Position numbers and translations under genes: made by a program. The notes beneath the pieces are model-generated. The model made no database searches. It was not told the DNA's origin and saw nothing but the letters and a program-made list of their open reading frames with translations. This document shows positions 59,496 through 63,534 of a stretch of 64,000 nucleotides of DNA, piece after piece; position 1 is the first letter of the stretch; every line of letters starts with the position of its first letter. The stretch is from the NCBI GenBank assembly GCA_030141605.1, contig JAQGDQ010000059.1:558001-622000 (forward strand), in the 5' to 3' direction. The DNA comes from Tubiluchus corallicola. Taxonomy: Eukaryota > Animalia > Priapulida.

Positions 59496-60352
59496 AATGA
59501 AATGTCATTTTCCTGCCACTACTTACACAGCAGAAAATCAAACATTCAAAGAACTGATCTAGGTTAAACATATTACACCTAACATAAACCATAAATATTC
59601 ACCTGTTTAGCAAATAGTGAGTGTAATTACATAATGGAACACCTGGTGCCACTAATAGACGTGCAGTCTTGCATCATTGCATCATGCAACTAGTATAAAG
59701 GTAGGTCTTAGGGATGAGAAGGCAGAATAGAAAGAACTAAAGAAGAACTGTGAAAACACAACGAAAAACGGAACTGTGAGAACACCACAAGGAAAAGAAA
59801 TACAATGAAGAAAAAGAGAAGAAAAATATCTGAAAAACAAAGATTGGATTGAAGATTGGAATAAATGACAGAAAAAAATGGAAGGAGCAAAAAGCAATAG
59901 ACAAAAAAATAAAAGAACAGCAAGAAGGAAAGTGCTACCAGGCTTATCCATCCTAAATGGGTATCAATCCTTCTTTTTTCTCTTTTGTAACTCCCCCCAA
60001 ATCCCACAATATGCCGAAATAACGACAGCTCTGAAGTGAGGTGTAATGAATACAAGTACTACCTGTTCTAGGAATCCGAAGCTGAATATAATGGTATAAC
60101 AAACCTAAGCCAATGCGGGGCAAATGACCTGTGAACTGGAGTATAGTGAACTATGTATATATTCGGATGACCAGATACTGGAAGTTCAAGTATAATAAAC
60201 CCACCATTATATATATATAGGTGACTTGAAACTGAAATTGATAATTTACTGAATGTGAATGCTATCAAGTAACTAAAACTAAATAAATTTCAAAGACATC
60301 ACTTCCGACATGAAACTGCCCTGCTTCAAAAATGTATTCACTTGTTTCAGTT

Positions 60353-60595
60353 ATGTATTCACCAACAATTGACCAAGATAACTCCAATCGCATAGCTTTT
60401 TGGAACAGTGACATGACTCGCTGTGTCATGTGTGGCCAAACCAACATACAATGTAATGAAGTGATCGGTGGATCAAAAGCAAATGGTGAAGAATTCGGGA
60501 CAAATGAATACATCTGCAAGACTCCCGGGTGTGGATGGAGTACAAGCTTCCTGTGGGATGATGGAAGTATGTATAAAAAATATAGAAGTGGCTAT

Positions 60596-60693
<98 letters not shown>

Positions 60694-60700
60694 CCTCCCT

Positions 60701-60745
<45 letters not shown>

Positions 60746-62421
60746 CCTCCCTCTCCCTCTCCTCTCTCCCTCAGTCTCTCTTGCAAGATTTATTGCAAGA
60801 AGCGACCAACACCAAAAGCTATCACCACTTCAGAAAAACATTGATGTGTCTAGGCAGGCAAAACAAGTTTTTTGCACTTTCAAAGCAACTGTTAATATTC
60901 CCCATCCATGTTTTACCATTCCTTGTAATAATGGTCGTTAAAGTTGTTTCTTTTTAAATATAATTCAACTTGCATACACCTACTGTTGTTATTCTGAGAA
61001 AAATAATAACACCTCTATTATTTATGTTTTTGCAAATGTTACTAATTCATCCACTCTATATGTGACAAACTTGTCGCAAGTGTGCAAACGTGCTAGCACA
61101 AACAGAATTTTAACACAAATGACATTTTGTCATATATGCAGAGCTATAATAACTATATTAACATAAATAGCCAAACAGGTGCAGGTGTTTACTAGCTGAT
61201 CAGTTAGCTGATTGAAAAAGAAAGAAAAGACAGCTAGCCATGCACGCACACATGCACACTCTCACACATGCACATGCACACACATGTACGCACACACGCG
61301 CGCACACACACTCACACACACACACACGCACACACCTTGTAAATACAGCACTACATGTTATTTTAATCTTGTTTACTTGGTTTACTTTGCATTTGCAACT
61401 TTACCAATTACAGCCCTTTTCTTATTTAAAGTAAAAGCTCTGTCATTCTTTATGCATACAAAAACCAGGAACATAAAAACCATCTATTTGTGAAGAAGAG
61501 AAAGAATGAAATAAAATTCCAACATTTTTATGTGCAACAACCATCCTGGTCAAATAATATAACACAACAATTTTAACATCTTTTTAATAATAGATTTGGC
61601 ACTCGGCTGTATGTATAGCTTAGCCTGAAATCAAAGCAGAAACCAGCTGTTATTGCAGTGTTTTGCAGAAATAGAAATTTATCACCACAGAAATTTCAAG
61701 TAATTTGACCAACTATTTACTAGCACATGTACTGAACTAAAAGTTTTACATATATTAGAAGTTTTTAAAGGAAATATGAAAGTATTAAACTGAGATTTTA
61801 ATACTTGATTGCTGTTTATAAAACTGGTAGACATTTAGGCCTTTTTGACATTCTTATTGAACACCTAACCACTTACACGTTGCTTACTAAAGGAAATGGT
61901 TCTCTATTTACATCTAATTAATTATTAAACTTAAAAGACAGCTGTTTATTGCTATTGACAAGGAATTTTAATGTAAAAGTCAACCAACTTTACTTGTCAT
62001 ACAGCAACATTACAAATTAAGAGTCAGATTGGTAAATCACTGCTTTAGCACATTTTTACTTCCTAAGTTGTCGTGTGTAATTGGGACCTATGCAAATATT
62101 TCCCCATAACAAAGTTACTTCATGTGCATTGCTATACTTCTACGATAACGAATCTTTCTAGGTAAAAAGTGCTTATTCTTCGAGGCTAACTCGTGGATGC
62201 TCGGTATAGAACATTTTCCCGCTAGATGGATGAAAATGTGGGCAAGACAGCGGAAATTCCCAGAATGTGTTATCAACCACATAGAAGCAAAAGACATCAA
62301 TGGACAAAAATTGACAGAGCTAGCTGCGACAGTAAGAAAAATCATGGTGGAATTTAATGTATCACAAAAAACAGCAATCATGATGAAGATCAAAATCGAT
62401 GAAAATGATCCTGACTTTTAA
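60353..62421 (+). CDS. Uncharacterised ~157-aa protein: Cys4 zinc-ribbon-like domain plus C-terminal SAM-like domain; nested antisense in ADSL intron
   Basis: Exon 60351-60566 (acceptor tttcag, ATG at 60353, donor A|GTATGT, phase 1) joins exon 62162-62421 (acceptor ttctag|GT) in frame: MYSPTIDQDNSNRIAFWNSDMTRCVMCGQTNIQCNEVIGGSKANGEEFGTNEYICKTPGCGWSTSFLWDDGSKKCLFFEANSWMLGIEHFPARWMKMWARQRKFPECVINHIEAKDINGQKLTELAATVRKIMVEFNVSQKTAIMMKIKIDENDPDF*. AATAAA at 62618-62623. Confidence 0.8.
60598..60780. repeat. (CT)n microsatellite
   Basis: Visible directly; lies at the start of the nested-gene intron. Confidence 0.97.
61240..61335. repeat. Degenerate (CA)n microsatellite
   Basis: Visible directly in the sequence. 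Confidence 0.92.
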
Positions 62422-63534
62422 GAGACATTATGAGGCACCAGCATGTTCATCTATATGAGAAAGAGACAGTCATTGCGCATGATACTACGGCTTATCATAA
62501 AGTAATGTTACCTAATATCACACCTACATCTGACATAATTGACCTAAGCAACAGAATTATTTCAGATGTGGTCACGAGATGGTGCTAGAGAGCAGATGCA
62601 AATACAGTATTTAAGTAAATAAAATTGGTACTCGATAAAAGGATCTGCTACTGTCTAAAGAATAAGTTCAAAATTGGACTATGAATGCTGTTTTAAAACT
62701 TATACCATATCATGCTGCATCCTACGGGCTTTATAACTTAAAGCATTGATCTTGTTTTTCTAGGAAACACATGTTTTAGTGATTAATCTAAGGCTTTCAT
62801 TCACTAAATAGTAAGAGCAACAATGCTTTAAGAGTGAAGACTGTTGGCGCATGCAATATTTACACTAAAATCGTTCTATTATTCACAACAAAATTTATGT
62901 AGCACCAAAGAAATATCTGCAAAGATAAACGCCAAAAGAAATTAGGAGCTGTACAATATCTACAACGCAGCATATTTCAGAAGCCAATGCACCATTAAAA
63001 CATACAAGTAAGCATGCATACAGTTTAAACATGGGAACATATCCGATAGATAGGCCACAACATCGAGAATAATAGCATTTTTTATTTAATGCTATTTGAA
63101 CGCCTGAAATGTCAATAAACTTGAGATTTCTACAGCTTCGGATAAGATGCAATTTATGTACTTATGCTCAAGTTTCTCAAAATAATTTCAGTTCGAAATT
63201 GATGGTATGACAGCATGTGAAAATCGACGCATCACTTGATTCATGCTTTGCAGTATAAATTATCTTGCAAGAGTTAAAAGCAAAATTCGCAGGAGATCAT
63301 AATTCTCAAAAATTATGGGAGGCAATGAAAAGCCTACATCTGTCATCAGTTTTTTTAAAACTTAGGCTCAGTTTATATTGTCACACCTTTTACACAGAGA
63401 TCAATGACACTTCAAATCTGATGCAATAATCTTCAAGCTGACATTGTGAACTTTAAAAAAGCTTCGCTTCAAAAGTCCTGCCTGCAATTAAATGTTGGTC
63501 CATCTGAATGCAGAAGGGTGCTTTGCTAGCAAAT

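Follow-up and report, generated by a model that had tools for sequence, protein, structure and literature searches.

Among the described zinc ribbons that come close to the module treated here are domain III of TFIIS and the C-terminal ribbons of RPA12, RPB9 and RPC10, which share with it two Cys pairs, a long hairpin, a Trp after the last Cys and an acidic residue at the hairpin tip. TFIIS-type ribbons cleave RNA by means of an adjacent Asp-Glu pair (10.1101/2020.06.29.177642). The gene considered here lies in a 64,000-nucleotide stretch of the priapulid Tubiluchus corallicola (GenBank assembly GCA_030141605.1, contig JAQGDQ010000059.1, positions 558,001 to 622,000; hereafter the window, to which all positions refer). 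On the forward strand it encodes a protein of 157 residues, in which a four-Cys zinc-ribbon-like module without family name (60371..62196, residues ~7-83, interrupted by an intron) precedes a predicted SAM domain (62200..62418, residues 85-157). Each of the two folds belongs to a known class, and genes nested in other genes are frequent, so that nothing in this locus is categorically new. New within the reach of our searches is a well-conserved, unnamed domain of 80 residues that occurs in several architectures and is common to invertebrate animals, protists and giant-virus-like genomes.

The ribbon module, its relatives and its tails

The cysteines of the window protein are spaced C24-x2-C27-x27-C55-x4-C60. 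This is the CxxC-x27-CxxxxC layout recognised in an earlier annotation made from the sequence by itself (the first-pass annotation), which had placed the module at residues 15-85; it begins earlier, near residue 7, crosses the splice junction and ends near residue 83. Conservation was counted over 124 distinct domain copies. All four Cys are present in 120 of them, and G49 (123), W62 (122), D69 (121), G45 (119), R42 (116) and T64 (115) are near-invariant, followed by F16 (114), F66 (113), S65 (112), E79 (108), Y48 (107), D7 (106) and D46 (102). The window protein keeps most conserved residues but has K42, E46, F48 and, where Gly is usual, I6. Its Lys in place of the invariant Arg at position 42 is shared with the closest relative, P0001, and judging by such sequence changes this lineage's copy is fast-evolving.

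An AlphaFold2 model of P0001 (64-row alignment; mean predicted local distance difference test score, pLDDT, of 90) has a helix at residues 10-18 and strands at 32-41, 47-55 and 63-69, and then five helices. The stand-alone member P0025, modelled alone (pLDDT 86), has the same topology in its N-terminal module. Two Cys knuckles flanking a beta hairpin are predicted in these three-strand models, the four Cys being those kept in 120 of the 124 copies. The predicted fold is a zinc ribbon, in agreement with the earlier proposal and with weak fold matches to ribbon cores, and zinc binding is suggested by the Cys pattern only.

In structural comparisons the module of P0025 matched ZPR1 at Z 4.1 (root-mean-square deviation, rmsd, 2.9; 48 residues aligned), NrdR at Z 3.4 and TFIIS at VIA Z 3.2 (43 aligned, 30% identity; aligned range 26-71 of P0025); a further TFIIS-type row had Z 3.0. 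The top Foldseek rows for the module, TFIIS (E 0.089) and RPA12 (E 0.3), are not significant, a sequence profile reached RPA12 at E 1.0, and a BFVD fold search gave no row at E<=0.001. Although the ZPR1 zinc finger and the NrdR zinc ribbon are the best fold rows, only a core of 45-50 residues aligns, with Z at background, and the domains that follow in those proteins are absent here. In ZPR1 the alignment covers 48 of 384 residues, and the ribbon of the window protein is followed by SAM and not by the ZPR1 A/B domain.

The first-pass annotation had compared the acidic hairpin loosely with TFIIS-type ribbons. A weak likeness of the ribbon core stands, whereas the acidic pair is specific to this lineage. 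Position 46 at the hairpin tip is acidic in 107 of the 124 copies, but two acidic residues at 46-47 occur in only three, including the window protein (E46-E47) and P0001; the other animal-type copies lack the pair, and because it is so rare the module is set apart from TFIIS. The module also differs from TFIIS, RPA12, RPB9 and RPC10 in its conserved N-terminal helix and C-terminal aromatic-acidic segment, and in being fused to SAM or standing alone. No polymerase-anchoring domain precedes the ribbon, where the P0001 and P0025 models have one short helix only, and no TFIIS family is among the 25 Pfam families listed. As modelled, the module would have the build of a TFIIS/ZPR1-class ribbon to which conserved flanks are added, and would not be a member of TFIIS.

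Two further resemblances were considered and set aside. For a transposase zinc ribbon (IS1595, IS1 InsA), PF12760 matches 14 of 64 members with a best E of 0.0016, below its cut-off; the gene holds no transposase domain, and no inverted repeat of at least 25 nt was found in 53000-64000. The weak PDB sequence rows (a parvovirus-like capsid, 9n5l, at E 0.075, TraR and haemolysin) lack the Cys pattern and were taken as chance.

A phmmer search with P0001 among 1.84 billion representatives at 50% identity gave 71 matches at E<=0.001, most of which span only residues ~5-87; P0006 was dropped from the family as a repeat artefact. Names were looked up for 21 of the 71. The named members come from Batillaria attramentaria (gastropod), Lineus longissimus (nemertean), Pigoraptor chileana and one MMETSP transcript, and none of the 21 bears a functional name. 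A word-indexed homologue search with P0001 returned only P0001 itself, and the profile search gave 17 proteins. Pfam has no family for the window exons or P0001; for the module of the relatives it gives no more than generic zinc-ribbon rows below threshold. No family of NCBIfam or PHROGs is shared by more than 3 of 26 members. In the protein atlas P0001 had nothing above 0.78, and P0087 lies near 30 unnamed clusters (up to 0.93) that may be its kin. A full-text literature search for the ribbon-SAM architecture or the accessions found no paper; supplementary tables of orthologous groups lie outside that search and may hold a name. We consider it probable that the module family has no existing name, and the earlier statement that the architecture falls outside named families holds for Pfam, NCBIfam and PHROGs. 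The locus, put forward before as a candidate for an undescribed system, is one gene with an unnamed domain, and no system is shown.

Residues 85-157 are predicted to form a five-helix SAM fold (helices at 92-101, 106-114, 119-125, 129-136 and 140-151 of the model). All of the 18 best structural rows are from SAM domains or from chains that contain one; many rows are tied, and the best has an rmsd of 2.3 over 69 of 70 residues and a Z of 7.9, a value below the tool's distinctive level. A 12-member profile (A6), which includes protist members with clearer SAMs, matches the SAMs of neurabin, liprin and SARM1 at E 5.7e-5 to 7e-4, with neurabin at 5.7e-5, and in two relatives, P0044 and P0058, the Pfam SAM family scores above its cut-off. 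The fold and profile matches agree with the two-module anatomy that had been read from the sequence. The domain shares the predicted five-helix fold (Z 7.9-6.7) with the SAM domains of Sfmbt/Scm/PHC3, SARM1, neurabin and liprin (PF00536, PF07647), but identity is only 10-16% and its partner domain is unlike theirs.

The architecture of ribbon and SAM-like domain recurs in XP_064621765.1 (Lineus longissimus), KAK7507564.1 (Batillaria attramentaria) and EP01137_P036824 (Pigoraptor chileana), the first two being 29-34% identical to P0001. Unlike the window gene these proteins retain the invariant Arg, and they have no functional name. Both the animal-type members and several protist-type ones have SAM-like tails. 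By eye, a different helical tail of ~40 residues, sometimes present twice, was picked out in twenty members. Its carriers are P0047, P0030, P0046, P0012 and 16 others (alignment A5), many of them protist-type, and it is seen also at L037:588-1040 and L039:184-759. This helical module had no Pfam row in six tails and no PDB profile match under E 0.66; a likeness to the C-terminus of CCDC53/WASHC3 is unsupported, with no such Pfam row in the six tails. P0004 and P0032 have the ribbon module in tandem duplicate, and in 72 of the 124 copies, a count that includes fragments, at most 50 residues follow W62. Tails are interchangeable across the family, being SAM, the other helical module, a duplicated module or none. 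In P0022 the ribbon is joined to a methyltransferase, and in P0027 to SAM and a carboxylesterase, where shorter cluster members suggest a possible gene-calling merge.

Gene model and position relative to ADSL

Exon 1 (60351..60566, forward strand) contains the ATG at 60353 and encodes codons 1-71 plus one base, with all four Cys and the long hairpin. It is followed by a GT-AG intron of 1595 nt in phase 1 (60567..62161), with donor GTATGT at 60567 and acceptor TTTCTAG ending at 62161. Exon 2 (62162..62421) carries the last part of the ribbon module, up to ~62196, followed by the SAM domain, and closes with a TAA ending at 62421; the spliced coding length is 474 nt, or 157 codons and a stop. The intron contains a (TC)n tract at 60598-60781 as well as (CA)n, as expected from the microsatellite-rich intron of about 1.6 kb described before. 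A likely 3' untranslated region (62422..62623) ends in the AATAAA at 62618-62623 that had been noted as the putative poly(A) signal.

An in-frame join is weak evidence when taken alone, since among 66 GT/AG pairs that were tried another, with its donor at 60588, yields a longer frame of 164 residues. P0001, a protein of 157 residues from a 923-nt Logan contig, was found with exon 2 as query (one match among eight candidates) and is identical to the window protein at 140 of 157 residues (89%); the 17 differences are ungapped, and start, length and junction are alike. Because the contig is short and without intron, it is most simply read as the mRNA of a close relative. Both exons also match the annotated Lineus protein P0005 collinearly (exon 1 at E 2e-18, exon 2 at E 9e-8). 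Together with the canonical sites and the junction shared with P0001, this upholds the first-pass model of two exons joined in frame, and the gene is almost certainly real and spliced.

Position 60351, formerly given as the start, is retained as the start of the exon and not of the coding sequence. An AG acceptor with a T-rich run beside it (60349..60350) stands two bases before the ATG, for which reason a further 5' exon, probably untranslated, is expected upstream of 60349. The sole strong GT donor on the forward strand in 57001-60345, at 59701, is a candidate end of this missing exon. Sequencing run X1 gave over 52700-61200 one 34-base repeat match, left the exons uncovered and is not counted as evidence. 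The match falls in a region (58746-59142) with two degenerate direct-repeat pairs spaced 270-281 nt apart, perhaps an old tandem duplication or a small repeat element.

Three clostridial-type purB proteins served as queries for exons of ADSL, a gene of purine synthesis, and detected exons spanning residues 257-450 on the reverse strand, the shortest of 34 residues. The most 5' of them in the window (52783..53000) corresponds to purB residues ~258-330 and has a canonical acceptor; the other four lie at ~50250-50340, 49271-49360, 47489-47665 and 47120-47206 (span 47120..50340). All five, from 53000 down to 47120, can be linked in frame to a stop through GT-AG sites, and ADSL looks intact, extending 5' past 53000. 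The search that recovered four ADSL exons as short as 34 residues below 53003 found no ADSL-like exon in 53016-64000, in line with the earlier claim for this interval, and in the whole window it gave no credible match to residues 1-256. As the first half of ADSL is missing from 53001-64000, the 157-residue gene would lie nested, antisense, within an intron of ADSL longer than 11 kb (53001..64000, reverse strand, far end beyond the window), unless the assembly is wrong or ADSL truncated. The 3' ADSL exons and their joins fit the antisense nesting proposed before; because the 5' flank lies beyond the window, we regard it as no more than likely.

Giant-virus-like copies and evolutionary history

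Of 186 candidate stretches in metagenomes, 46 were confirmed as loci of the module, in stand-alone copies. Homologue and metagenome searches together reveal the patchy, protist-rich spread that the first-pass annotation had envisaged for the N-terminal module. Most of the longer loci have densely packed unspliced open reading frames (ORFs) and a G+C content of 18-57%, and many of the 46 are likely giant-virus-like. Seven carry ORFs with a Lys/Tyr-rich N-terminal motif, which we take to be of the Mimiviridae type. Neighbours were scanned as 139 ORFs from 23 loci, of 158 listed from 24 loci. Locus L026 has a eukaryote-type Rpb1, and L021 one ORF with both Rpb3 and Rpb11, a fusion that would be a mark of nucleocytoviruses; no statement to that effect was found in passages of PMC11579359. 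At both loci the module gene lies within 5 kb of the RNA polymerase subunit genes, and no such subunit is among the neighbours of the other 21 scanned loci. Other neighbours include FNIP repeats, MORN repeats, ankyrin, photolyase, tRNA synthetase, TIR and Bax-inhibitor genes, none being common across locus groups. L035, with HORMA, CCT and RecQ-like genes, is plainly eukaryotic. On one virus-like contig (L041:9351-10899) genes for a stand-alone TIR domain and for a Bax inhibitor lie less than 5 kb from the ribbon gene.

Pattern scans of GTDB prokaryotes confirmed 0 of 34 and 0 of 103 candidates, and phages and plasmids gave no match to the module. The origin of P0024, P0043, P0048, P0055 and P0071, bacterial-like by eye, is therefore unconfirmed. 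The same applies to L045:4447-4755, a divergent and bacterial-looking member whose N-terminus is different and which lies next to a response regulator gene and laminin-G genes.

A quick tree was computed without bootstrap from 105 rows (after removal of copies more than 90% alike) and 98 columns. Nine rows labelled as animal-type and P0072 fall on one side of a branch with a Shimodaira-Hasegawa-like approximate likelihood ratio (SH-aLRT) of 85, unstarred, apart from the virus-like rows and from Pigoraptor; the labels were assigned by us, some by sequence likeness only. The window protein and P0001 share a long stem of 1.62, against 0.38-0.49 for other animal-type groups. Five fragments that appear to be genomic read-through (P0008-P0011, P0013) cease to be similar at the codon of the window intron, where they have Gly or Cys, the residues expected from a phase-1 GT donor, and P0062 and P0069 begin just past the intron position. 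These protein fragments suggest that the intron position is common to animal-type members. The earlier annotation had seen in a patchy distribution a possible sign of horizontal transfer or of repeated loss. A recent transfer into this animal is unlikely because the animal-type copies group together and the intron position appears to be common to them, a pattern that favours long residence in animals over recent insertion.

Possible function and alternatives

Sequence and models are compatible with a two-part adaptor, a reading which we offer tentatively and overall with a little less than even confidence; that the protein would be an adaptor rather than an enzyme we slightly favour. The ribbon, predicted to be zinc-stabilised, would bind a conserved eukaryotic partner through residues of the hairpin tip. 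R42, N44, G45, D46, Y48, G49, W62, T64, S65, F66, D69, the acidic residue at 70 and E79 would form one binding site, composed of the conserved tip, the third strand and the aromatic-acidic segment. The predicted SAM domain would cluster the protein or dock it to other SAM proteins. Since the tail varies among members between SAM and another helical module, and many lack it, this exchangeable part would add only avidity or location. Because its copy is fast-evolving (R42 to K, G6 to I), the binding specificity of this lineage may have shifted. The tail-less giant-virus-like copies might mimic the host protein, or compete with it, for the same partner, a decoy role that we consider doubtful.

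Several results weigh against the adaptor and its viral counterpart. The best SAM match of residues 85-157 stays below the level that the tool calls distinctive, and Pfam finds no SAM domain in P0001 or in exon 2. Conserved columns are not spared by the seven ribbon-region differences between the window protein and P0001 (mean top-residue frequency 0.55 versus 0.49), and this small column test gives no sign of purifying selection. Capsid, DNA polymerase B and packaging ATPase genes are missing among the 139 scanned neighbours and IMG/VR scans confirmed no member, so that the giant-virus label is one we only infer. Finally, several invariant positions hold charged or polar residues (R, D, D, E, T, S), which would fit a catalytic site equally well.

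The last point leads to a small enzyme, for instance a nuclease or nucleotide hydrolase, in which the invariant R, D, D/E and E would form the active site, the SAM domain would cluster it and viruses would carry the bare enzyme. In SARM1 the SAM domains cluster a TIR enzyme, and the SAMs of SARM1/TIR-1 rank high among the matches of the tail, by fold as well as by profile; stand-alone copies are common, and the charged and polar residues are near-invariant in protist, animal and virus-like copies alike. However, the module has only ~80 residues and matches no enzyme fold above Z 3, its invariant Arg is replaced by Lys in the window gene and P0001, and the SAM matches are tied among many non-enzymes. 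We regard an enzyme as unlikely. Somewhat less likely again is an undescribed and ancient eukaryotic recognition or effector domain of virus-host conflict, whose SAM or other clustering tail would, in protists and some invertebrates, serve to build a signalling filament, whose bare form several giant-virus lineages would have captured as a blocking decoy, and of which the window gene would be a fast-evolving animal survivor.

A diverged ribbon of the TFIIS/RPA12/RPC10 type, acting on RNA polymerase with its hairpin entering the funnel, would account for the non-significant top Foldseek rows, the TFIIS row at VIA Z 3.2, the mostly acidic position 46 with E46-E47 in the window gene, and the polymerase subunit genes near L021 and L026. 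Yet the Asp-Glu pair of TFIIS (10.1101/2020.06.29.177642) has a counterpart in only the three copies mentioned, no polymerase anchor stands ahead of the ribbon, the conserved flanks (residues 7-17 and 63-83) have no equivalent in TFIIS, and the other 21 scanned loci lack a polymerase neighbour; this makes such a role improbable. More improbable still is a regulator that would bind RNA through the ribbon and a Smaug-type SAM together: zinc ribbons often bind nucleic acids and the Smaug SAM does appear at Z 6.4, but only at rank 25, outranked by protein-binding SAMs, acidic and aromatic residues abound in the conserved patch, and most members have no SAM. Least probable is a recent horizontal or viral insertion or relaxed remnant, functionless in this animal, for while the stem is long, the invariant Arg is lost, the family occurs in virus-like contigs and the gene probably lies inside another gene, the frame is intact and ungapped in two lineages that differ at 17 of 157 residues, the tree places the gene with animal-type and not virus-like copies, five read-through fragments lose similarity at the codon of the intron, and both exons match one nemertean protein.

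For the adaptor, the near-invariant surface residues are direct targets for mutagenesis, and the natural forms with and without tail make the choice between adaptor and decoy testable in protist hosts. If viral forms do antagonise host forms, a conflict between eukaryotes and giant viruses at a new, conserved point would come to light.

Elsewhere in the window, exons at 1479-9655 (forward strand) and 39164-42603 (reverse strand) were noticed by eye, which appear to encode a USP22/nonstop-like deubiquitinase and a PDGF/VEGF-like secreted protein, respectively. Short frames at 43532-43912 (forward strand) and 48326-48619 (reverse strand) resemble by eye C-terminal fragments of retrotransposon proteins of the long interspersed nuclear element type.

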